45,062 bases of DNA from Veterinaerplatzvirus T145P1. A program made the translations under genes and the position numbers. Where the stretch lies: sequence record OZ035765.1, one strand, 5' to 3'. Shown here piece after piece: positions 3,940-44,781 of this stretch; the stretch's first letter is position 1, and every line of letters starts with the position of its first letter. The notes beneath the pieces were generated by a model. That model was not told where the DNA came from, did not search any database, and worked only from the letters and a program-made list of their open reading frames with translations.

Positions 3940-5028
3940 ATGTCTAAAATCCGATATGACAACGCAAAGTTTAAGGCAACAATCGACGAGAATGGATTCT
4001 TAGTAGATACGCCAGTTGTCGCACGTCTCGGCGTGCAAGTCTACTACATGGAGGACGGCCGCACTGTTCGGGAGTTTCGCCCAGCCGAGGAGGTTTTCAA
4101 AGATGAATCTCTAGCGAGCTACCAGGGCAAGCCAATGACCATGGACCATGTTTTCGTTAACTCAGAGAATGCTAAAGAGGTGGTGGTAGGATCGGTTGCT
4201 GGAAAGGCGGAGCCATTAGGCAGCTCTGTAGTTGCTCCAATTGTTATTTACGATAGTGCCGCCATCAAGGAAGCCATGGCAGGTAATGCAAAGGAGTTAT
4301 CCGTTGGATACTCATCAGTTATTGATTACACCCCCGGCTGGGGCGACCCTGTTACTGGCGAGTACTTCCTCAAGTCTGAAAGTGAGCTATTCGACGTACC
4401 AGAAGGATGGCAGGAGTTCGACGCAATTCAGCGTGACATTAAAGTGAACCATCTGGCAATGGTGTATCGCGGTCGCGCAGGCATTGCCAAATTGAATATG
4501 GACGGTGAGCAGGAAAACCCGTATACTACTGACGTTGATATCAATAAAGAGGATAAACAGGAAATGACAGTTAAAATTAAACTCGACGGCGCGCAGGAAT
4601 TTGAGGTCGCCCCGGAAATCGCCTCTCACATCGAAGCACTGAACGCAAAGGCTGACACCGCAATCGCAGAGCGCGATTCTCTGAAAGCTAAAGTAGATGC
4701 AATGCCAGCTGAAATCGAAGCTGCCGTTGCTAAAGCGAAAGCTGATGCTGATGCCCTAGCCGCTCTGGTTGCTGTTGCTGCTGAGGCTGGTGTTAAGGCT
4801 GACGGTCTGGATGCTAAAGGCATTAAAGTTGCTTACGTTAAAGAAGTCTCCGGTCTTGATGTTAGTGAGAAGTCTGACGCATACATCGACGCGGCATTCG
4901 ACATTGCCAAAGAATCTGATAAAATGGCTGAAGTACGTAAAGCAACTACTGCTTCCGACAAATCTGACAGCGCCGATGAGCCTAAGAAATTAGACCCACG
5001 TGCTCGTTTAGCTAAAATTAAGAAATAA
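3940..5028 (+). CDS. head morphogenesis / scaffolding protein
   Basis: Start moved to ATG at 3940 (RBS GAGGAG at 3927-3932); C-terminal Ala/Lys-rich coiled-coil region typical of scaffolds. Confidence 0.5.
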   Translation: MSKIRYDNAKFKATIDENGFLVDTPVVARLGVQVYYMEDGRTVREFRPAEEVFKDESLASYQGKPMTMDHVFVNSENAKEVVVGSVAGKAEPLGSSVVAPIVIYDSAAIKEAMAGNAKELSVGYSSVIDYTPGWGDPVTGEYFLKSESELFDVPEGWQEFDAIQRDIKVNHLAMVYRGRAGIAKLNMDGEQENPYTTDVDINKEDKQEMTVKIKLDGAQEFEVAPEIASHIEALNAKADTAIAERDSLKAKVDAMPAEIEAAVAKAKADADALAALVAVAAEAGVKADGLDAKGIKVAYVKEVSGLDVSEKSDAYIDAAFDIAKESDKMAEVRKATTASDKSDSADEPKKLDPRARLAKIKK

Positions 5029-5040
5029 GGAGTTATAAAC

Positions 5041-5562
5041 ATGGCAATTCGTTCCGTAGCACTGGCTGGTATGGTTTCTGATACTTCTCTGTACAACATC
5101 GACGGCGCTTGCGTAGTTGGCGGCGCAGCAGCCATTCCGGTTGGCACTTTTGTTGGCGTTACATCAGCTCAGCCTGTAGATGGTCACAAAGTTGTTGGGC
5201 TTCCTGCTGTGACTGGCACACCAGTTAAACCTTACGGTGTTGTTGTTAAATCTCATTATGAGACTCCAGATGGCACCGCTCGCGTAAATGAAGCGGTTAA
5301 CGTGATGACACACGGTCGAATCTGGGTTCGTACAACTCTAGCGGCTGCGCCAGTTTTTGGTAGTAAGGTTTACGTAAACGCGAGTGGCGTTGTTGCTGCT
5401 AAGGCTGCTACCACTACCTGGGAAACTGGTTTTACATTTGCTGGTGGCTATGTGTCGGCTTACGCTGGCGGCGCTGACCCAATTAAGCAAGGTGAAAGCG
5501 TTGATGGTGCAATGGTTGAGGTTCAGTTGATTCAATCAGCAGACTCAACTGTCGCCGCTTAA
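5041..5562 (+). CDS. head structural protein (decoration-like, putative)
   Basis: 173 aa Gly/Ala/Val-rich; between scaffold and major capsid; strong terminator follows. Confidence 0.4.
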   Translation: MAIRSVALAGMVSDTSLYNIDGACVVGGAAAIPVGTFVGVTSAQPVDGHKVVGLPAVTGTPVKPYGVVVKSHYETPDGTARVNEAVNVMTHGRIWVRTTLAAAPVFGSKVYVNASGVVAAKAATTTWETGFTFAGGYVSAYAGGADPIKQGESVDGAMVEVQLIQSADSTVAA

Positions 5563-20275: not shown

Positions 20276-20511
20276 TCCTTACTGCCGTGATCTGCAACAG
20301 AACCGCCGTAACCGCCGCCAGATTTGCTTTCAATGCCAGCGTAGCGAATATCAACCTCACCAGCCGGAACAACTACACCGCCTTTCCACTTAGCTACGCA
20401 CACGCCGTTTGCTTGTGTTGCACACCACCCATCAGGTCGAGGACCAGAAGAACAACCTACTGTCATGATTACTGCCGCCGAGATGATTGCTGATTTGATG
20501 AAGTTAGTCAT
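20266..20511 (-). CDS. cor: Cor-like outer-membrane lipoprotein (superinfection exclusion, putative)
   Basis: Start moved to ATG at 20511 (AAGGAA RBS); signal peptide plus lipobox-like TVGC; located beside the J gene as cor is in FhuA-using phages. Confidence 0.5.
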
Positions 20512-20550
20512 TTTGTATTCCTTATTAAGTTGTTTCGTTTTGATGTAGTA

Positions 20551-20594
20551 ATAATACAACCGTCAGTGCGGAATGTCTTTAGCTATTCGTGCTA
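20551..20594 (-). promoter_or_regulatory. conserved promoter/operator module (cor operon)
   Basis: Minus strand TAGCACGAATAGCTA, 23 bp, TATTAT, leader TACTACATCAAAACGA. Confidence 0.45.
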
Positions 20595-20652
20595 TTGCAT
20601 ACACGTAACCGATGTAACTCGATGTATACAATCTCATCCGCGGAAAATGATA

Positions 20653-20678
20653 TACGCACTGTTACGCAAATTTACGCA
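20653..20678. repeat. three TACGCA motifs at exact 10-bp phasing
   Basis: TACGCA at 20653, 20663 and 20673. Confidence 0.6.
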
Positions 20679-20694
20679 TTGGTTACATTAAAAT

Positions 20695-20751
20695 ATCTAT
20701 ATATATCAACCTTTTACTCTTATTATTATTATATATATATTACTGTGTATA
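20695..20751. repeat. AT-rich block, copy 1 (divergent control region)
   Basis: ATCTATATATATCAACCTTTTACT-(ATT)n-ATATATAT-TACTGTGTATA; near-identical to 39509-39574. Confidence 0.7.
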
Positions 20752-20852
20752 TCATGTAACTACTTCTATAGAGTGTTCCGGTTATAATTTTAATATCATG
20801 TGGATTTATACAGTATTGCGCTGCAGCTATACCAATGCACCCTCAGCAATAA

Positions 20853-21251
20853 ATGATATACACGATATACACGATGGTTACATTGAGCTATAGCTGGGCC
20901 GAGATGCCAAAAAACGTAACTAGTGCCAATGCCTACACGGAATTACAAGGATTCACGCGTAAACTTAAATCAACGATTGGCAAAACCAATTGGACTGGTT
21001 ACGGTGCCGAATATATAGTTAACTCATCGAAAGCAAACAACCAGAGAGATACAGAAATGACCTACTACATTATCAAAGAGAAAAACAACGCACTGTTCGG
21101 TGATTGCTACTTTGGCGGCCCTGCTGGATATACCACAGATAAGAAAGAGGCTGACAGATTCGAGACTAAAGAAGAAGCCCGAGATGTGCTGACTGGTTAC
21201 TTCACTGAAGAAGATTTGAAGTCTGTTAAAGTGGTTAAGGTTAAGGAATAA
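20853..21251 (+). CDS. hypothetical protein (start uncertain)
   Basis: First ATGs lie inside the GATATACAC tandem repeat; alternative starts at about 20874 or further downstream. Confidence 0.35.
   Translation: MIYTIYTMVTLSYSWAEMPKNVTSANAYTELQGFTRKLKSTIGKTNWTGYGAEYIVNSSKANNQRDTEMTYYIIKEKNNALFGDCYFGGPAGYTTDKKEADRFETKEEARDVLTGYFTEEDLKSVKVVKVKE
20855..20872. repeat. tandem GATATACAC x2 (related copy at 39480-39502)
   Basis: GATATACACGATATACAC; related CGATATATACACACGATATACAA in the second control region. Confidence 0.6.
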
Positions 21252-21254
21252 AAT

Positions 21255-21452
21255 ATGAAGGCTTTTATAGACATAAATAAGTCACCATACAACGACGAGA
21301 AAGATCCTGAGGTAAGATTAAGGGTAAAATTTAGCACAGGAAGGGAGATAAATATAACAACTACATGTTCTGATTTAGCGAAAGCACTTATGGGTTGTAG
21401 TGAAGTTCCTGTTACTGTTTCAACGAGAAATGTTGAGGTGAAAATAAAATGA
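21255..21452 (+). CDS. hypothetical protein
   Basis: 65 aa, RBS AAGGAA. Confidence 0.4.
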   Translation: MKAFIDINKSPYNDEKDPEVRLRVKFSTGREINITTTCSDLAKALMGCSEVPVTVSTRNVEVKIK

Positions 21453-22414
21453 CTTTCAGGGTTTACACACGAGAGGAGCTAAGCAACGAGGATTACCACT
21501 CAGAGCAAGATCATATCTCCGGCAGCTCACTTGTCGAGATTATCCAAGGATCACCAGCTAAGTGGAAGTTCAAGCAACGCAATAGAGATAGCAAGGCGCT
21601 TAAGTTTGGTACCTTATCTCACTGCATGATTCTCGAACAAGATGTATTCGACAAGGAGTATTTGCGAGCAGTAGACCTTGACGCGATTGAAGGCTTAATT
21701 ACAAGCCAGGCAGGATTAGCAGCAGCACTTAAAAAAGTCGGTGTGGCTGGAACATCAGGGAAGGGCTATAGCGAGCTTGTAGAGATGATGTATCGTTCTG
21801 GCGAGGACTGGCCCATTAAGTGGCTAATTGATCAGCTGGAAAGCGCTCAAGCGCTTGTGGAGGGTAAGGAGCTAGTTAGCGCAGCAGACTATGACAAAGT
21901 TGTGGCTATGCGTGAGGTTCTTTGCAATATTCCGGCATACAATGCAATCGTGAATAGTGAGACGGCGCAGAAAGAGTTATCAATCTTCGGTGAGATTCTC
22001 GGCGTCGGCGTTAAGATTCGAATTGACCATGTTGATGTTGTTGATGGCGTCGTTCGGATCACGGATTATAAAACGACAGCCGACGCAAGCCCTGAAGGAT
22101 TTGGTAAGTCTGCATTTAATCACGGATACCTTGCAAAAATGGCGCTTCAGCGCGATCTGTTTGTGAAAGCATTTAACGAGAAGCGCAAGGTTGTTGTAGG
22201 ATTGCTGGCGCAGGAGAAGGTGGAGCCATACCTACCAATGCTGTACACACTAACCGACGAACAGCTGCGAATTGGTCGCCTTCAGTATCTTGAGGCACTT
22301 GCAACTTACAAGAAGTGCAAGGAGCTTGATATTTGGCCTGGATATTCTAACGGCATTACAGAGCAAGAGCTATTGGTTCCTGATTGGGCCATTAAACAAT
22401 ATAGAGAGATATAA
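21449..22414 (+). CDS. PD-(D/E)XK recombination exonuclease (putative)
   Basis: IDHVD...ITDYKT motif (D...D/E-x-K); located with Erf and SSB. Confidence 0.65.
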   Translation: MTFRVYTREELSNEDYHSEQDHISGSSLVEIIQGSPAKWKFKQRNRDSKALKFGTLSHCMILEQDVFDKEYLRAVDLDAIEGLITSQAGLAAALKKVGVAGTSGKGYSELVEMMYRSGEDWPIKWLIDQLESAQALVEGKELVSAADYDKVVAMREVLCNIPAYNAIVNSETAQKELSIFGEILGVGVKIRIDHVDVVDGVVRITDYKTTADASPEGFGKSAFNHGYLAKMALQRDLFVKAFNEKRKVVVGLLAQEKVEPYLPMLYTLTDEQLRIGRLQYLEALATYKKCKELDIWPGYSNGITEQELLVPDWAIKQYREI

Positions 22415-22415
22415 A

Positions 22416-22880
22416 ATGAACAAAGATTGCTGGCAGACTCCTTTAGACTTATTCAAACCGATAGATGATAAATACAAATTCAAGGTTGACGTGTGCGCAA
22501 GCCAAGAAAACGCGCTTTGTAAATATTACTGGACTGTAGATGATGACTGCTTGCAACAGGATTGGGGAGATGATGGTGGTTTCGTTTGGTGCAATCCACC
22601 ATATAGCAATCCATTACCATTTGTTGAAAAGTGCCAGCAATACGGCTATGCGGTCATGCTATTGAATCAGGATACGTCAACAAAATGGGCTAAGATAGTC
22701 TTTGAAAAAGCATCAAAGGTTATACTTTTATCAGACAGGGTTAGGTTTATAAATCCAGTAACAATGGAGGTTGGTAAGTCAAATCCTAAATGCCAGATGA
22801 TTGTAGTTTTCGACAGGCGTAGCAATTCTGGAGTTGATATACGTTGGTGTTCAATAAAAGAAATTCATAAGCAAATTTAA
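22416..22880 (+). CDS. dam: DNA N6-adenine methyltransferase (phage Dam family)
   Basis: Start moved to ATG 22416; catalytic NPPY motif (WCNPPYSN); about 154 aa. Confidence 0.8.
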   Translation: MNKDCWQTPLDLFKPIDDKYKFKVDVCASQENALCKYYWTVDDDCLQQDWGDDGGFVWCNPPYSNPLPFVEKCQQYGYAVMLLNQDTSTKWAKIVFEKASKVILLSDRVRFINPVTMEVGKSNPKCQMIVVFDRRSNSGVDIRWCSIKEIHKQI

Positions 22881-22881
22881 A

Positions 22882-22925
22882 TAGCATGAATTGCTAAAGA
22901 CAAAACTAAAGGGTGTGGGTATGAT
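22882..22925 (+). promoter_or_regulatory. conserved promoter/operator module (erf)
   Basis: TAGCATGAATTGCTA followed by a TGGGTA/TACCCA hairpin; -10 weak. Confidence 0.4.
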
Positions 22926-22954
22926 TACCCAATCAACAACGAACGAGGTTAAAG

Positions 22955-23605
22955 ATGAAAATTTCAGAATCATGCAAGTCAATTTTAAACGCTCTACACA
23001 CCGCCAAATCGCTATTTGCGAAGGCTGAAAAATCAAAACAGAACTCACACCTCAAGAACAGATACAGCACCCTTGATGATGTTCTTGCCGCTGTAGAACC
23101 AGGCCTTGAAGAATGTGGTCTTGTAATGTTTCAGAGCGTAATTGATAGCGAAGCTACTGGACTGCTGAAGGTTGAAACGAAGTTGTTCCATGCAGAGTCA
23201 GGCGAGTGGGTTAGCTTCTTAATGATTGTCCCTATCAGCAAGAATGATGCTCAAGGTTACGGATCTGCGCTTACATATGCTCGACGCTACGGAATTACAG
23301 CAGCTTTAGGTCTTAGTCAGGCAGATGACGATGGTAATCTCGCAGCTAAAGGCGTTAAAGACTTTAAACGTGAGCTTGAGAAGTGTAATAGTCTTGATGA
23401 GCTACGTAACGTATGGAAAGAGGCTAAGCAATCACTAGACGCTGCGGGATGGAAGGTTTTTGAACCTCACATTATCGAGCGCAAGGCAGAGATTGAAGCA
23501 AATGCAGCAACTGGCTTTAACCCTGCAACACCAAAGAAAGTTGCAGAAAAAAGTAGTACTGAAGAAAAGACTGAAGTAGAATCACAACAAATCGACACAT
23601 TCTAA
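22955..23605 (+). CDS. erf: Erf-family single-strand annealing protein
   Basis: NRYSTLDDVLAAV and GSALTYARRYG motifs. Confidence 0.85.
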   Translation: MKISESCKSILNALHTAKSLFAKAEKSKQNSHLKNRYSTLDDVLAAVEPGLEECGLVMFQSVIDSEATGLLKVETKLFHAESGEWVSFLMIVPISKNDAQGYGSALTYARRYGITAALGLSQADDDGNLAAKGVKDFKRELEKCNSLDELRNVWKEAKQSLDAAGWKVFEPHIIERKAEIEANAATGFNPATPKKVAEKSSTEEKTEVESQQIDTF

Positions 23606-23646
23606 ATTTAACGGGGCTGCGGCCCCAACCAATAGAGAGATAAAAC

Positions 23647-24072
23647 ATGCACGTAATTACTGGTCAGATTCGACGCGCTCCATTCACTAAAGAAGGTCAT
23701 AATGCTAATGGTACCTGGAAAATGTTTGCGGTTGATTTGAGTGAGCGATACAAAGATAAAGATGGTCAGACTCAGTATAGTAACTATCGCGCAGTCTTCT
23801 TCGCGAAAGAGTCAATGTTAGATTGGTATAATGAAGCTTTTCAAGAGGGTAAAGTTGTTAGCGTTAGCGCAGAGACTCTTTCTGTTGATGTTAGAGATAA
23901 AGATGGCAAGACTTACGTTACTGTCAACATGAACAATCCTAGACTTGAGTTTAGTCAGCGCGGTGAAGGTGGCGTGCAGCAGCAACCTAGACAACAGCAA
24001 CAAGCACAACAGCAACAACAGAATCAACAGCCAAAACAGCAAAAGCAATTCGAAGATGATATTCCTTTCTAA
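23647..24072 (+). CDS. ssb: single-stranded DNA-binding protein
   Basis: OB-fold-like N-terminus, Gln-rich linker, C-terminal acidic tail ...FEDDIPF. Confidence 0.85.
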   Translation: MHVITGQIRRAPFTKEGHNANGTWKMFAVDLSERYKDKDGQTQYSNYRAVFFAKESMLDWYNEAFQEGKVVSVSAETLSVDVRDKDGKTYVTVNMNNPRLEFSQRGEGGVQQQPRQQQQAQQQQQNQQPKQQKQFEDDIPF

Positions 24073-24076
24073 AGAT

Positions 24077-24101
24077 AAGGCCCCTTTTGGGGCCTTTTTT
24101 A
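24077..24101. terminator. bidirectional terminator (ssb and convergent tail fibre gene)
   Basis: AAGGCCCC-TTTT-GGGGCCTT followed by T-run. Confidence 0.65.
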
Positions 24102-26684
24102 TTAACCTATTTTAGTGTAAGTCCATTGGTATGTTGCAGCTCCCTTGGCAGTTATCCCGACAGTTCTTCCACTTACATCCATTGAAGTGAAAGCGCCAGT
24201 TTTTGTAATTGTTATTGATGATGTGGAACCATCAAAAAGTACGTCAGCAATTACACTATAGTTAGGTCCAGCACCAGTAACCCAGGTCGAAACCTTGTAT
24301 AAACCAGCGTTGTTTGGCAACTCAAAAAGACCAGTTGAAACATTCGCCTGAACAGCCATCGCGCCCTTTCCGGTGTACACACCGTCAGTTTTAAGACCTA
24401 ATGATGAATATGTTTGCTTATAGCCACCAATGATGGCACCACCCATAGGTTCAGTAAACCAGTTCACATTACCCTGACTAACAACAGATATCGCTGGAGA
24501 CCCCCCTTTAGCTGACTGAAACCTACCGCTTAAAATGTCAATTCTAGATGCTGAGTCCTGGGCGTAGATAGTTACAGGATACCCACCAGAACCAGTGTAA
24601 ACCAAGCCGTTATCATTAATGTCATCTTCAGACGAGTCAATGATTACATGGGAAGTTCCAGACGCCTTGATGAACGAAACAACACCGCTAGAACCAGCAC
24701 CTGTTGTTCTAACTTCATTCTTCCATGATGTTAGGCCTGAAATTCTGCCATTTGAGTTATTAAACCTAATCAGGCAACAATCTTGCGATCCGTTGGTGTC
24801 AATAATGTTACCTTCAACGTCCATCCCTAGTATGTTTACGCTATGGCTGTTGATGAAGTTAATCCCAGCACCACCGTAAGAACCAGATGTTGATGATATA
24901 TTACTGGCATCCATTGCGCAGTTAATCATTGTAACGCTCATTACCGAACCAAATTCATAAGGTGAAATGCAATCTGATGCGTAACAAGTCTCAAGCAATA
25001 TTGTCGTTCCTGTCGCCTTTATGAATCCAGTCCTGCAATTCCTGGCCCAAACATTCTGTAGCTTAGTCTGGTATGTTCCAGTGGTGTCCGTGTAGCAACC
25101 CCATGCTCCATGGACTGTGCAATCTTTGATACATGAATTTTCTAGCCCTGTTGCAGAACCAACATTAGAAACGAAGTTAAATGCTATCTTTTGATCATTC
25201 CCTGATGCTGAGGTAGGTGTAGTGCCTGGGTTATAAAAAATGTAAAGTCCCTCAATAAACACTTGATACATTCTTATGTTTTGCGCATCACCCTGAACCA
25301 GGGCGAATAGGTTTATGTTCCCATCAACTGAGATAAATGTTTGCGCCCTGTTAATTTGGTTTGTTCCCTCGCCAATAATTCTTGTACTGTTGCCAATCCT
25401 CACCGTCCTGTTAATGAACATAAAACCTTTTGGTATGTATACAGTTTTACCGGTATTAACTGCCGCCTGAAGCGCAACTGCGTCAAGTGACTCGTTAAGG
25501 TTTGATGCAAATGGATAAACAAACCGCGCATCCTCAATTGTCGAGAATTTAGATGAAAGAGGAACTAAAGTACCATTGTTTGTAGCACCAAAATCCATGA
25601 CGTTAACAAAGTCACCAAGTTTACTATCCTTACTCCTTTCTACAAATGAGGCCAATGTAGATTTGTAATTCATCGAACTGAATTGTGATTGAGCCTCTGT
25701 CTTTGAATAAACATCTGATCTTGGGTAAACCTCTGATTTTGAATAAACATCAAGCAAACCCCTAGCTCTTTCAGCAGTAGCGCCGCCAACCGACTCCCCG
25801 CCTTCAACCATAATGTATTCGCGTAAGTAGAAGTTTCTTGATCCTTTAGCGCCCGTCATCCTGAGGTGAGTAGCCCTATATGATGAATCAGAATTCAATG
25901 CCGGATATATATCAATCTCATAAGAGCCTTGAGCTCCACTTGTGCCCCTAACACATATAAAAAGCGTAGCGTTGGCTGTAGTGTATGTCGCAGCTAGTGA
26001 TGCTGGAACGTTTGTCATGTTAGATACTACAACTCGATAATTACCACCACTTTTAAATTCAACTTGCTGCCAATCCAATGATGGCATAGCTATTGTCGAT
26101 GTGCTTGCGATACCCTCATTGGCTAGAGTAACCAAAGTTGCAGCATCACCAGCGTTGGCAATGACATTAACTGTGTTGTTGTATGCCTCCTGCGCACTAC
26201 TTGCGCTTGATTCAGCCTGAGCCTTGCTTGTAGCGGCAGCTTGCTGGCTGGCAGATGCAGCCGATTCGCTTGAAGCCGCATTTGTTTCGCTTGCCTTCGC
26301 CTCATCAACTAATCGTTGTAACTTATCGAAATCAAAATCACCAGATTCAGCCAACTCAACAAGTGACGCAACCTCAGTTTCACGTGACTGATAGTAACGA
26401 AGAGTTTCCGCAACATCCTGAGCTAGCCCCTGAACGGTAATTCCATCATGCGCAAGGATAGCGTAACCAGTTCCAGCAGGAACAGTTTCGGAGTTAGGGT
26501 TGTAAACATTAATCTGCGTATCGCTGATAATTTCTGAGATGGTGTAAATCTGTACTGGTTCAGTTTTAAATACAATGGTTGCACCTACACGAATCAGTGT
26601 AAGAGGTGCTTTCCATGTTGTCCCGACGCCAGTCACCTCACCACTTGCTGCTAGAGAAGCTGTTCCTGAGTCATAAATTGCCAT
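24102..26684 (-). CDS. tail fibre / tailspike with beta-helix-like domain
   Basis: Probable ATG start at 26684; N-terminal anchor-like region, Ala/Ser-rich coiled coil, then repetitive G/N/S/T-rich region resembling a parallel beta-helix. Confidence 0.75.
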   Translation of the reverse strand: MAIYDSGTASLAASGEVTGVGTTWKAPLTLIRVGATIVFKTEPVQIYTISEIISDTQINVYNPNSETVPAGTGYAILAHDGITVQGLAQDVAETLRYYQSRETEVASLVELAESGDFDFDKLQRLVDEAKASETNAASSESAASASQQAAATSKAQAESSASSAQEAYNNTVNVIANAGDAATLVTLANEGIASTSTIAMPSLDWQQVEFKSGGNYRVVVSNMTNVPASLAATYTTANATLFICVRGTSGAQGSYEIDIYPALNSDSSYRATHLRMTGAKGSRNFYLREYIMVEGGESVGGATAERARGLLDVYSKSEVYPRSDVYSKTEAQSQFSSMNYKSTLASFVERSKDSKLGDFVNVMDFGATNNGTLVPLSSKFSTIEDARFVYPFASNLNESLDAVALQAAVNTGKTVYIPKGFMFINRTVRIGNSTRIIGEGTNQINRAQTFISVDGNINLFALVQGDAQNIRMYQVFIEGLYIFYNPGTTPTSASGNDQKIAFNFVSNVGSATGLENSCIKDCTVHGAWGCYTDTTGTYQTKLQNVWARNCRTGFIKATGTTILLETCYASDCISPYEFGSVMSVTMINCAMDASNISSTSGSYGGAGINFINSHSVNILGMDVEGNIIDTNGSQDCCLIRFNNSNGRISGLTSWKNEVRTTGAGSSGVVSFIKASGTSHVIIDSSEDDINDNGLVYTGSGGYPVTIYAQDSASRIDILSGRFQSAKGGSPAISVVSQGNVNWFTEPMGGAIIGGYKQTYSSLGLKTDGVYTGKGAMAVQANVSTGLFELPNNAGLYKVSTWVTGAGPNYSVIADVLFDGSTSSITITKTGAFTSMDVSGRTVGITAKGAATYQWTYTKIG

Positions 26685-26705
26685 TGTGTAGAGTCTCCAT
26701 TTGTA

Positions 26706-26745
26706 AAATAGCACGAATTGCTAAAGTGGATTGTAGCATCTTTGA
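26706..26745 (-). promoter_or_regulatory. palindromic operator copy at tail fibre 5' end
   Basis: TAGCACGAATTGCTA lies between a TACAAT-like box and the fibre start; operator rather than promoter geometry. Confidence 0.35.
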
Positions 26746-28334: not shown

Positions 28335-30329
28335 ATGTTGCCTATCGAGAAGCTGGTTGCAAATTTCGATAAAGAAAGAATCAAACAGATTCAGAGAGAT
28401 TATCAGTTTGGCGAGATAACCCCTTACGAATTCCAGTGCGTAACATTTGATGCAATCGGGAAGGCTATTGGTAAGTATGAAGCGCCATTTATCGCTGACC
28501 TTTCAGTATCTGCGGGTAAGACAATCATTCTTGCCATGATTGGTAAGCGCATGGAGCAGCTTGGGCTTCCATATATGGTTCTCTCTCGCCAGTCAGAGAT
28601 TATCAGCCAGAACTCAGAAGAGCTTCGTAATTTCGGCATCCGTAATAGCGTCTATTGCGCTGGCCTTAACGTCAAATCAGTTTACTACCCAACTATAGTG
28701 GCCAGTGAGGGTACGGCAGCCAACGGCTTGTTTAAGGGGCTTGGTGACTATGTTCCGGCAGTTATCGCTATAGATGAGTGTCACATGGTCGATCACATGG
28801 ATATCGTGGAGGCTGAAGAGAATGAAGAAACATTTGAGCAAATGAGCACAAAGAAAGGCGATATGGTTTTTAAGGATGGCGTAAACACAGGATTGCTTGG
28901 TACTGGTCGTGCTCAGTACACGCTAATTATCACCGAGATGAAACGTCGTTGTCGTGAGAAGTACGGGCGTGAGCTTCGTATATTCGGTCTTACTGGCAGC
29001 CCGTATCGTAACAACGATCATATCGTCGTTAGCAACCCAAACATCCGTGGATTCTGGCGCAAAACAGTGATTCAGGTGCCAACAAATTATCTGGTTGATT
29101 TGGGCTTCGTGGTTCCTACTGTTTATGGTGAAGTTGGTGACCTGGGTTATGACCTTAGTGAGTTTGCGCCAGACGGAAGCGATGGCGTTAAAGACTTCAG
29201 CAAGAAAGAAATGGATGCAATGGCTGCAAAGATTCACGACAACCAATCAATGACCCAAAAGATAATGGGTTTTGTTGTGAAAATACTCGAGACTCGTAAC
29301 GCTGCATTGGTAACATGCGCTGGCAAACTCCATTGTGATGAGGCTGCTGCGGCACTACCAGATGGATACCCTTACGCCATCATCACAGACTCTACGGGAG
29401 AGAGGAAGCGCAGGGAGATTCTGGCTGATTGCCAGACAGGTAAGTACAAAATAATATTCCAGATTGGTTGTCTTACTACGGGCGTAAACCAGCCGCTGTG
29501 GGATACTAGCGTCATACTACGCAAGATTGGCAGCCTAACGCTTATGATTCAGCTTCTTGGTAGGGGGATGCGCAAACTTAAGAGATCTCATATTGATGCT
29601 GGTTTTCATAAAGAAGATCACCTTGTGCTGGATTTTGCTGGCGCACTTGATGATATGGCTGAGCTTTACTTTGACCCAATTATTGAAGAGATTCAGGCTG
29701 AGAAGTTTAAATCCTCAAGAAAAGGTGGCGATGAGGTTCGTCAGTGTCCGCAATGTGGATATGAAAATTCCCCATTCGCTCGTCGCTGTAGCAATAAGAT
29801 TGATGGCGTTAGATGCGATCACTTCTTTCAGTTCACAATTTGCGAAGACATTACCGACGCGCAAACTAAATCGGTAATTAAAAAGGGTTGTGGCGCTCGC
29901 AATGACATAGCAGCAAAGGTTTGCAGGGAATGCGGCGAGATGCTTAAAGACCCAAATGCTAACCTGACTGGCAAAATGTATCGTCGTGGTGATTACCTTC
30001 GTGTTTATGATTTTCAAGTTGGGTTAAGTAAGAATCAGACAGGCATTGTAGTTAAGTACAATATAATGGCTCATAACGGAGAGAGATTTAACGCTTGGGA
30101 GTTCTTTAATCCAGAATCAGACCATCGAGTTTGCAGTGTGCTCTGGAAGAACTTTTGCTTAGCTCATATTGATAATCGCACGGAAGCGGCACGAATTGGC
30201 AGGCTTAAAAATGCCAGAATGATTATGACTAACGTAGATAAGTTCCGTGCGCCAGTTCAGGTTACGCATCGCCGGAATGCAAAAGGAAAGGACGTGATAG
30301 CGTTTAAGAATTTTGGAGAATTATTATGA
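28335..30329 (+). CDS. SF2 DEAD/DEAH-box helicase
   Basis: Walker A VSAGKT, DECH box (AIDECHMV), C-terminal Cys-rich zinc-ribbon-like region. Confidence 0.8.
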   Translation: MLPIEKLVANFDKERIKQIQRDYQFGEITPYEFQCVTFDAIGKAIGKYEAPFIADLSVSAGKTIILAMIGKRMEQLGLPYMVLSRQSEIISQNSEELRNFGIRNSVYCAGLNVKSVYYPTIVASEGTAANGLFKGLGDYVPAVIAIDECHMVDHMDIVEAEENEETFEQMSTKKGDMVFKDGVNTGLLGTGRAQYTLIITEMKRRCREKYGRELRIFGLTGSPYRNNDHIVVSNPNIRGFWRKTVIQVPTNYLVDLGFVVPTVYGEVGDLGYDLSEFAPDGSDGVKDFSKKEMDAMAAKIHDNQSMTQKIMGFVVKILETRNAALVTCAGKLHCDEAAAALPDGYPYAIITDSTGERKRREILADCQTGKYKIIFQIGCLTTGVNQPLWDTSVILRKIGSLTLMIQLLGRGMRKLKRSHIDAGFHKEDHLVLDFAGALDDMAELYFDPIIEEIQAEKFKSSRKGGDEVRQCPQCGYENSPFARRCSNKIDGVRCDHFFQFTICEDITDAQTKSVIKKGCGARNDIAAKVCRECGEMLKDPNANLTGKMYRRGDYLRVYDFQVGLSKNQTGIVVKYNIMAHNGERFNAWEFFNPESDHRVCSVLWKNFCLAHIDNRTEAARIGRLKNARMIMTNVDKFRAPVQVTHRRNAKGKDVIAFKNFGELL

Positions 30330-30745
30330 AGATTACAGATAAAGAAGATTACATTGAGTTTTACCAGGGTCCGGTTAAGTCATGCCCTAAAGAGGATGAC
30401 GAACAAATCTTTTGCTCTGATTGGGTTAAGTATAACTACCCAGATATGGTATTTTTCCATTGCGTGAATGAGGGAAAGAAAACCATTGGTCAAGCAAGAA
30501 AAGACCAGGCTAAGGGGCTTCTAAAAGGCGTATCAGACTGTATGTTTCTTATTCCTGAATCACTTCGAGGTAAGTATCCTTTCGGAGCTATAGAGCTAAA
30601 GAGGGCTGGCAAAACTCAAGCAAGTCCAGTCAGCGAAGAACAGAAAGCATTCCTGAAAAGTGTAATGGAATCAGGCGGTTTCTCGGCAGTCGCCTACGGA
30701 CGTGAGGGTTTTCTTGCAGCATTCAAAGAAATGATTTCAAAATAG
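30326..30745 (+). CDS. VRR-NUC-like nuclease (putative)
   Basis: 139 aa; D...E-L-K type motif (DCMFLIP...AIELKR); ATGA overlap with helicase. Confidence 0.5.
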   Translation: MKITDKEDYIEFYQGPVKSCPKEDDEQIFCSDWVKYNYPDMVFFHCVNEGKKTIGQARKDQAKGLLKGVSDCMFLIPESLRGKYPFGAIELKRAGKTQASPVSEEQKAFLKSVMESGGFSAVAYGREGFLAAFKEMISK

Positions 30746-31657: not shown

Positions 31658-31858
31658 ATGAAGGCAGTTGTTGTTTACAACAAGAAAGGTCGTAATTACT
31701 TTACTGTTGGGAATATTTACGATGTTTCACCAGCTTACCCTAAAGATGAAGAACAGTTATTATTTGATGTTACTGACGATGAAGGCGATCGTGTCTCAAT
31801 AATAATTAGCGAATCTGCTGATTGCGCTCATGGTTTCGTTTGGGAGCTTTTAGAATGA
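31658..31858 (+). CDS. hypothetical protein
   Basis: 66 aa; promoter module at 31584-31626. Confidence 0.4.
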   Translation: MKAVVVYNKKGRNYFTVGNIYDVSPAYPKDEEQLLFDVTDDEGDRVSIIISESADCAHGFVWELLE

Positions 31859-32562: not shown

Positions 32563-33693
32563 ATGGCAACCGCAAAAATCACCAACGAACAATTGCGCGA
32601 AGAGTTAGCAAATGGCATGACCAACAAGGCAATCGCAGAGAAGTACGGAATGAACATTCGCAACGTTGAATTGCGTCGCAGTAAATTAGCTAAACAAGGC
32701 GAAGGGCATGGTCGCGATGTAAGCAACTTAATCCCTCAGGGCTATGCAGTTAAAGGCGTCTCCAGCTTAATTGGTGCTGATGGCGAGATTAAGCAACAGT
32801 GGGTTAAATCAGATATCGACAAGGAGAAGCAAGAAGAGATGATGCTTCAGGCAATTCAGGCCCTAACTGATGAGTTGCCGCGTGAGAAAGCTAAAGCTTT
32901 AAGGGTTGGTTTATGGGAAGATACTTTAAGCCTTTACCCCGTGTTCGACCTCCACATTGGAGCAATGGCTCATCATGCTGAGTGTGGTGAGAACTATAGT
33001 ACTGAAATCGCTGAGAGAGTTCTTAATGATTACTTTGATTACGCGGTTGCAAAGGCCCCCAACTCCAAGAAAGCTGTATTGCTGATTGGGGGTGACTTCC
33101 TTCACTCTGACGGAATGGAAGCGGTAACACCAACCAGTCGTCATGTTCTTGATCAAGATAGCCGTTATCACAAACTTGTTTACGTAGCAGTGCGATCGAC
33201 ACGTCGAGCAATTAGCCGCATGCTTGATAAGCACGCCGAGGTTGAGGTTCAGATTATTCCAGGTAACCACGATCTCTCAGGTATGATTTGGCTTCGTGCT
33301 GCAATGGCAGCTTTCTATATGGATGAGCCTCGAGTTAATGTTGATGCGTCCCCCGCTGCGCTTCACGTAACGCAATTTGGGAAGACGCTGCTTGGTTACT
33401 GCCATGGGCACGAACTCAAAAAGCCTGATACCCGACTATCAGCACTGGCTCGTGACCATCGCAAAGCATTTGGTGAATCAGAGTATGTTTACACCCATTC
33501 AGGCCACTATCACCATCAAACTATTACGGAAGGAAATCTGGGTATTGATGAATCACACGGCCAGCTTGGAGCGAAAGATGCGTACAGTGCTAACGGAGGT
33601 TATCGCTCTTACCGACAGGCTTCGGTGATAATTTATAGTCCTGAGTTTGGTGAGATTGGACGATTTACTTGCCGCCCGGAAATGTTTAGTTAA
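32563..33693 (+). CDS. calcineurin-like metallophosphoesterase with N-terminal HTH
   Basis: Motifs D-L-H, GGDFLHSDG, GNHD, GHxH (SGHYHH); N-terminal MTNKAIAEKYGMNIRNV HTH-like segment. Confidence 0.6.
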   Translation: MATAKITNEQLREELANGMTNKAIAEKYGMNIRNVELRRSKLAKQGEGHGRDVSNLIPQGYAVKGVSSLIGADGEIKQQWVKSDIDKEKQEEMMLQAIQALTDELPREKAKALRVGLWEDTLSLYPVFDLHIGAMAHHAECGENYSTEIAERVLNDYFDYAVAKAPNSKKAVLLIGGDFLHSDGMEAVTPTSRHVLDQDSRYHKLVYVAVRSTRRAISRMLDKHAEVEVQIIPGNHDLSGMIWLRAAMAAFYMDEPRVNVDASPAALHVTQFGKTLLGYCHGHELKKPDTRLSALARDHRKAFGESEYVYTHSGHYHHQTITEGNLGIDESHGQLGAKDAYSANGGYRSYRQASVIIYSPEFGEIGRFTCRPEMFS

Positions 33694-44704: not shown

Positions 44705-44781
44705 GCTCGAGTGGCGAAAGTGGATATCGCAAGAGACTTCTAATCTCTAGATTGCTGGTTCGAATCCAGCCTCGAGCGCCA
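44705..44781 (+). tRNA. tRNA-Arg (anticodon UCU)
   Basis: Hand-folded cloverleaf: 7-bp acceptor GCTCGAG/CTCGAGC, D-arm GCGA/TCGC with GG loop, anticodon stem AGAGA/TCTCT with loop CTTCTAA, T-arm GCTGG-TTCGAAT-CCAGC, discriminator G, encoded CCA. Confidence 0.85.

Follow-up and report, generated by a model that had tools for sequence, protein, structure and literature searches.

What does a phage gain from a DNA adenine methyltransferase that has no restriction enzyme to go with it? The question is raised by a 154-residue protein encoded between an exonuclease gene and an Erf gene in Veterinaerplatzvirus T145P1, a T1-like phage of the family Drexlerviridae, subfamily Braunvirinae. The window, i.e., the whole stretch of DNA that was analyzed, covers 45,062 of 45,312 bases, practically the complete genome. 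The region matches public record OZ035786.1 (Veterinaerplatzvirus T145P1), which carries no annotation, at 100% identity, and a literature search for T145P1 yielded a single hit, a preprint on amyloid signaling in antiphage defense. The favored answer, to which a probability of roughly 0.55 is assigned, is that the gene encodes a functional, minimal N6-adenine methyltransferase of the PF05869 family that targets GATC and tops up the methylation of the phage DNA, shielding the remaining sites from MutH or from MboI/DpnII-type enzymes.

The coding sequence lies on the plus strand at 22416-22880 (stop codon included) and begins with ATG. A longer frame started by TTG at 22272 was rejected as the true gene; it shares part of its length with the exonuclease gene, and every homologue starts with MNKDCWQTP, so that 22416 is the real start. 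The product is matched by Pfam PF05869, “DNA N-6-adenine-methyltransferase (Dam)” (E=1.1e-38; 133 bits versus a cutoff of 28.1), by the NCBIfam equivalog TIGR01712, “phage N-6-adenine-methyltransferase” (106.9 bits versus a cutoff of 97.05), and by phrog_111, “DNA methyltransferase” (E=3.9e-54). Catalytic motif IV, NPPY, is encoded at 22593-22604 (+) by AAT CCA CCA TAT and corresponds to N60-P61-P62-Y63. These three profiles, together with NPPY at residues 60-63, bear out the sequence-only reading, which had proposed an NPPY-bearing adenine methyltransferase of 154 amino acids (aa). Residues T8, P9, D25, N60, P61, Y63, D86, and R108 are invariant in 53 family members and all are found in the T145P1 protein, while P62 is present in at least 90% of these members.

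The same reading had called the enzyme “Dam-type”. The term is acceptable as the name of the PF05869 family, but it does not denote homology to E. coli Dam: in the Pfam scan, the protein had no match to the profile of PF02086 (MethyltransfD12), the alpha-class family of E. coli Dam and T4 Dam, whose members carry a target-recognition domain inserted ahead of motif IV. By its profile matches, the protein is classed as a clear member of PF05869/TIGR01712 and not of the E. coli Dam family. PF05869 has long been known from T1, HP1, and Stx (Shiga toxin) phages, and GenBank and NCBI nr already label close orthologues of the T145P1 gene as phage N6-adenine methyltransferases. The gene is therefore real but ordinary and already known, and on its own it is of little importance.

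An AlphaFold2 model, built from a 53-sequence alignment, folds the protein into one compact domain (predicted local distance difference test, pLDDT, 93.2; predicted template modeling score, pTM, 0.90). The enzyme is thus a small, single-domain protein, with no separate target-recognition domain in the model. A sequence search of the PDB returned a sole, chance match to isocitrate dehydrogenase (E 0.77) and no solved structure of the PF05869 family. By the fold of the model, the protein is a minimal gamma-type core consistent with “group 2” of Iyer et al. (PMC4738411). Residues R108, F111, T116, N123, and K125 are invariant in a 9-sequence alignment, and we infer that the stretch harboring them, between model strands 101-105 and 127-133, is likely the element that contacts the base and the DNA.

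By homology, the T145P1 enzyme most likely methylates the adenine of GATC, because every characterized member found in the literature makes G6mATC. M.EcoVT2Dam has been reported to target GATC (PMC6602927), and a homologue of the kind labeled VT2 Dam, from Stx phage PA16, shares 41% identity with the T145P1 protein over 137 aa. The T1 protein is 29% identical to that of T145P1, and M.EcoT1Dam is GATC-specific (PMC4996451). M.Btr190III shares 35% identity with T1 Dam; it acts on GATC and, when cloned, exhibits notable off-target activity (PMC4996451). M.Phi93DAM, in which NPPY is the sole recognizable motif, also makes G6mATC (PMC4190342); the matches from lactococcal phages are approximately 25% identical to the T145P1 protein, lie in the packaging module, and fit the description of this enzyme.

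The GATC content was compared in eight genomes in all, with expected counts derived from a Markov model. No other of the 256 tetramers is as depleted in T145P1 as GATC (61 observed versus 212 expected, a ratio of 0.29). Six genomes of the lineage, with or without the methyltransferase, have ratios of 0.29-0.34, whereas the Dam carriers T1 (0.78) and Dhillonvirus Gluttony (0.83) are near-normal, both having their PF05869 gene at a position other than that in T145P1. One of the causes put forward for the avoidance of GATC by enterobacteriophages is the cutting of unmethylated sites by MutH (Deschavanne and Radman 1991 and McClelland 1984, as cited in PMC5014478). The pattern of depletion speaks for a protective role against nucleases with unmethylated GATC as their target, for example MutH or DpnII-type enzymes.

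Several 6-bp palindromes are nearly absent from T145P1, including CTGCAG (1 versus 8.5 expected), AAGCTT (2 versus 14.1), and GGCGCC (2 versus 9.2), and CCCGGG, GGGCCC, and CCTAGG do not occur at all. This scarcity resembles the avoidance of sites for type II restriction enzymes.

As judged from genome comparison, the gene is an accessory cassette that is present in only some phages of the T1-like group and has a clean junction. It is flanked by the gene for a RecE/ExoVIII-like PDDEXK exonuclease (exo; DUF3799; 21449-22414, +) and that for an Erf-family single-strand annealing protein (erf; 22955-23605, +). The location between these two genes, already given by the sequence-only reading, is confirmed by the profile matches of both neighbors (Pfam, NCBIfam, and PHROG for the exonuclease; Pfam and PHROG for Erf). 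By tblastn, copies at least 80% identical occur in only 6 phage records, and the next-best homologues are found in Dhillonvirus (~50%), Stx phages (~39%), and T1/Tls-like phages (~28%). The same exo-erf slot holds the gene in vB_Ec-G8 (G8) and JeanPiccard, the orthologues being 88-92% identical, and exo is followed directly by erf, with the methyltransferase missing, in SU57, vB_EcoS-12210III (12210III), and JulesPiccard.

The 5′ edge of the cassette is a TAA-A-ATG junction (22412-22418, +), in which the exo stop codon lies one base before the methyltransferase start, as it also does in G8 and JeanPiccard. The 3′ edge comprises the methyltransferase stop codon and the spacer to erf (22878-22954, +) and was located by comparison with SU57 and 12210III: from TAAATAGCA on, the T145P1 sequence is the sequence that follows the exo stop in these methyltransferase-less phages. 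In the latter, exo ends in ...KQYKEI-TAA, followed by ATAGCAC...; in T145P1, exo ends in ...KQYREI-TAA, one base separates it from the methyltransferase ATG, and the methyltransferase ends in ...KEIHKQI-TAA, after which the same ATAGCA... flank begins. The TAA-A-ATG junction suggests that translation of the methyltransferase may be coupled to that of exo and, together with the place of the gene in the recombination operon, suggests co-expression with the recombination functions. The G+C content of the gene is 38%, versus 44% for the genome. Against its orthologues, the ratio of nonsynonymous to synonymous substitution rates (dN/dS) is 0.05-0.11 at dS values of 0.3-0.55; by this measure, the gene is under strong purifying selection and is not a decaying insert.

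The order exo-Dam-Erf-SSB (single-stranded DNA-binding protein) recurs on five metagenomic contigs, beside differing tail-spike genes. On another metagenomic contig, SRR27603322_2565 (931-1756), a 53%-identical homologue of 150 aa directly follows a VRR-NUC gene, and in T1 the Dam gene comes after those for the helicase and ST21, which is the slot of the VRR-NUC gene in the T145P1 lineage. The PF05869 family therefore uses at least two slots in such phages. The presence and absence of the gene within one lineage, the clean boundary, and the published phenotypes of the BASEL phages together offer a cheap test bed for the function of a phage Dam in a Dam+ host.

A second variable slot lies upstream of the recombination operon, in the divergent intergenic region (20560-20850), where T145P1 has no gene. 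In the relatives (intervals 20962-21651 and 4782-5435), JeanPiccard harbors a Dcm-like C5 methyltransferase and G8 an annotated anti-repressor, and a pRha-family gene occupies the equivalent place on three metagenomic contigs.

The sequence-only reading had also claimed that the methyltransferase has no cognate endonuclease. For this purpose, open reading frames (ORFs) of at least 45 aa were collected, those mostly overlapped by a longer ORF were removed, and the remainder were compared by tblastn with four relatives, three of them informatively annotated. All match the relatives’ genomes except one of 66 aa (31658-31858), and no restriction enzyme or second methyltransferase is found among the mapped ORFs by the relatives’ annotation. 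Neither turned up when 16 ORFs were scanned with Pfam and 8 with PADLOC. The sole PADLOC matches were orphan-methyltransferase models for the 154-aa protein itself, and in Pfam ten of the 16 ORFs gave only a VRR-NUC nuclease, a weak Metallophos match, a Cro-like regulator, and two DUFs. The VRR-NUC protein (30326-30745) and the weak Metallophos protein (32563-33693) were considered as nuclease partners and rejected, each being a conserved core gene in methyltransferase-less relatives. A Type II restriction–modification (R-M) system pairs a methyltransferase with an endonuclease of the same specificity, and no such endonuclease partner was found in the window. The claim thus stands on ORF mapping, Pfam, and PADLOC, with small ORFs of no assigned function remaining as possible partners. 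The 66-aa ORF (31658-31858, +) lies in a cluster of small genes after the helicase and VRR-NUC genes and has no tblastn match in the four relatives; it may be strain-specific or may not be a gene.

Why, then, is the orphan enzyme kept? The classical explanation is anti-restriction, whereby the enzyme would serve mainly to methylate the phage DNA in advance and so guard it from type II R-M systems of the host, in particular MboI/DpnII-like enzymes, which cut GATC when it is unmethylated. As the principal role this is possible, but we regard it as doubtful. M.Phi93DAM, a member of the same family, shields lactococcal phage DNA from DpnII (PMC4190342), PADLOC groups the T145P1 protein with orphan methyltransferases, and the gene is a patchy accessory, like many counter-defense genes. 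However, the E. coli hosts are Dam+, such that the phage DNA is already largely methylated at GATC, and no evidence was found on the frequency of GATC-cutting, Dam-sensitive R-M systems in E. coli. The published phenotypes (BASEL S1 Data; JeanPiccard is Bas02 and JulesPiccard is Bas03) also speak against it. JeanPiccard, whose orthologue in the exo-erf slot is 92% identical, is unprotected against the six tested, non-GATC R-M systems: it forms no plaques on hosts with EcoRI or EcoRV, and its efficiency of plating is about 1e-5 on EcoKI, about 2e-3 on EcoCFT_I, about 1e-5 to 1e-4 on EcoCFT_II, and about 1e-6 to 1e-5 on EcoP1. JulesPiccard, which lacks the gene, fares no worse across the six systems, and the BASEL authors found no simple link between the methyltransferase genes of Drexlerviridae and resistance to restriction. 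These phenotypes argue against both generic anti-restriction and broad adenine methylation. Protection against host restriction, as proposed by the sequence-only reading, is accordingly supported only in part: it is weak as a general claim and retains plausibility solely for enzymes whose target is unmethylated GATC.

A relaxed or non-GATC specificity, in which an enzyme devoid of a recognition domain methylates adenines broadly, is quite unlikely, although the minimal single-domain structure of the AlphaFold2 model would be compatible with it. EcoRI (GAATTC), EcoRV (GATATC), EcoKI, and EcoP1 are all blocked by adenine methylation within their sites. JeanPiccard is nonetheless stopped by the first two and strongly restricted by the other two, and the characterized family members found all target GATC, even if M.Btr190III methylates off-target when cloned (PMC4996451). 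It is also improbable that methylated GATC sites serve to time transcription or packaging. A precedent has been proposed for phage P1, as cited in PMC4190342 and PMC4738411, but the 61 GATC sites of T145P1 are spread out, and neither the genome ends nor the promoters have a marked cluster nearby that would suggest a packaging (pac) or regulatory site. Close relatives that lack the gene have an unchanged genome plan and exist as viable isolates, and both observations render an essential regulatory role unlikely. Finally, there is very little to recommend the view that the protein is not a DNA methyltransferase at all but an RNA adenine methyltransferase, like PCIF1, its best structural match, or an inactive remnant; the RNA methyltransferase reading taken from the PCIF1 match was rejected, and the dN/dS values do not fit a decaying insert.

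In the favored explanation, a GATC-specific enzyme that tops up methylation, the S-adenosylmethionine-dependent protein would methylate the adenine of GATC and would share the expression of the early recombination genes; its start codon is one base past the exo stop. In Dam+ E. coli, it would provide extra GATC methylation on phage DNA that is rapidly replicating and recombining, sparing the roughly 60 remaining GATC sites an unmethylated or hemimethylated state. The methylated sites would then escape MutH of the host mismatch repair system and, where present, restriction enzymes of the MboI/DpnII type. Such is the physiological pay-off that we infer for the T145P1 methyltransferase.

Several points weigh on the other side. 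With a usual host that is already Dam+, any added benefit remains to be proven. The specificity for GATC is drawn from proteins of only 29-41% identity, in a family without a dedicated recognition domain. Depletion of GATC is equal with and without the gene, which would mean that the gene has not visibly relaxed selection on these sites, and the contrast with T1 and Gluttony comprises two genomes only. Furthermore, the tie to recombination is positional only. A more specific role in recombination is a speculation to which we give little credence at present: Dam would work with the recombination proteins, full GATC methylation preventing MutHLS from cutting mismatched Exo/Erf heteroduplexes in mixed infections. 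If this were true, GATC depletion and an accessory Dam would be two interchangeable answers to the same host nuclease.

The remainder of the operon is organized as follows. Two small ORFs with no assigned function (132 aa, phrog_35664; 65 aa, phrog_1222) stand at the head of the same gene block (20853-21452, +). The 132-aa ORF (20853-21251, +) matches phrog_35664 with E=8.9e-86 and is kept in part by the relatives, at 65-91% identity over 92-122 aa. The last gene of the operon encodes the single-stranded DNA-binding protein (23647-24072, +; phrog_44, E=1.2e-27, with weak NCBIfam SSB matches), and the operon is closed by a terminator-like GC-rich hairpin followed by a T run (24077-24096, +), at the same position as an annotated terminator in SU57. 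A promoter scan of 20300-24300 was uninformative, with 9 sites versus 8.5 expected from shuffles. Beside the operon, on the minus strand, lies a mosaic gene for an 870-aa lateral tail fiber or tailspike (24102-26714), which is 80% identical to that of JeanPiccard, approximately 52% identical over part of its length to those of G8 and 12210III, and 91% identical, also over part, to that of SU57. A tRNA-Arg gene (anticodon TCT) is found at 44705-44781 (+), and tRNA-Arg is likewise annotated in JeanPiccard, SU57, 12210III, and JulesPiccard.

Among known systems, the T145P1 enzyme resembles several adenine methyltransferases, each with salient differences. The M.TaqI, HsdM, and PCIF1 catalytic cores belong to the same group 2 (PMC4738411). 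However, those proteins are 380-610 aa long, carry extra recognition or partner domains, and are only 11-18% identical in sequence to the T145P1 protein; PCIF1, although the best structural match of the model, acts on mRNA caps. M.Phi93DAM from a lactococcal 936-type phage and M.Btr190III from a Bibersteinia prophage are small, Dam-like enzymes for which G6mATC activity has been shown experimentally, but they come from distant hosts and another genomic module, and the likeness is one of description. M.EcoT1Dam (ST20 of phage T1) shares PF05869 membership, the family Drexlerviridae, and orphan status; in contrast to the T145P1 protein, it has 237 aa with an N-terminal extension of ~55 aa and is encoded outside the recombination operon. 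The M.EcoVT2Dam-type enzymes of Stx and lambdoid phages are likewise small, single-domain, orphan PF05869 proteins with NPPY, yet their N- and C-terminal tails differ, and their genes lie in the nin region of temperate phages, between ninB and ninE, rather than between exo and erf. E. coli Dam and T4 Dam, of the alpha class (PF02086), probably yield the same product, G6mATC, by the same (D/N)PPY catalytic chemistry.
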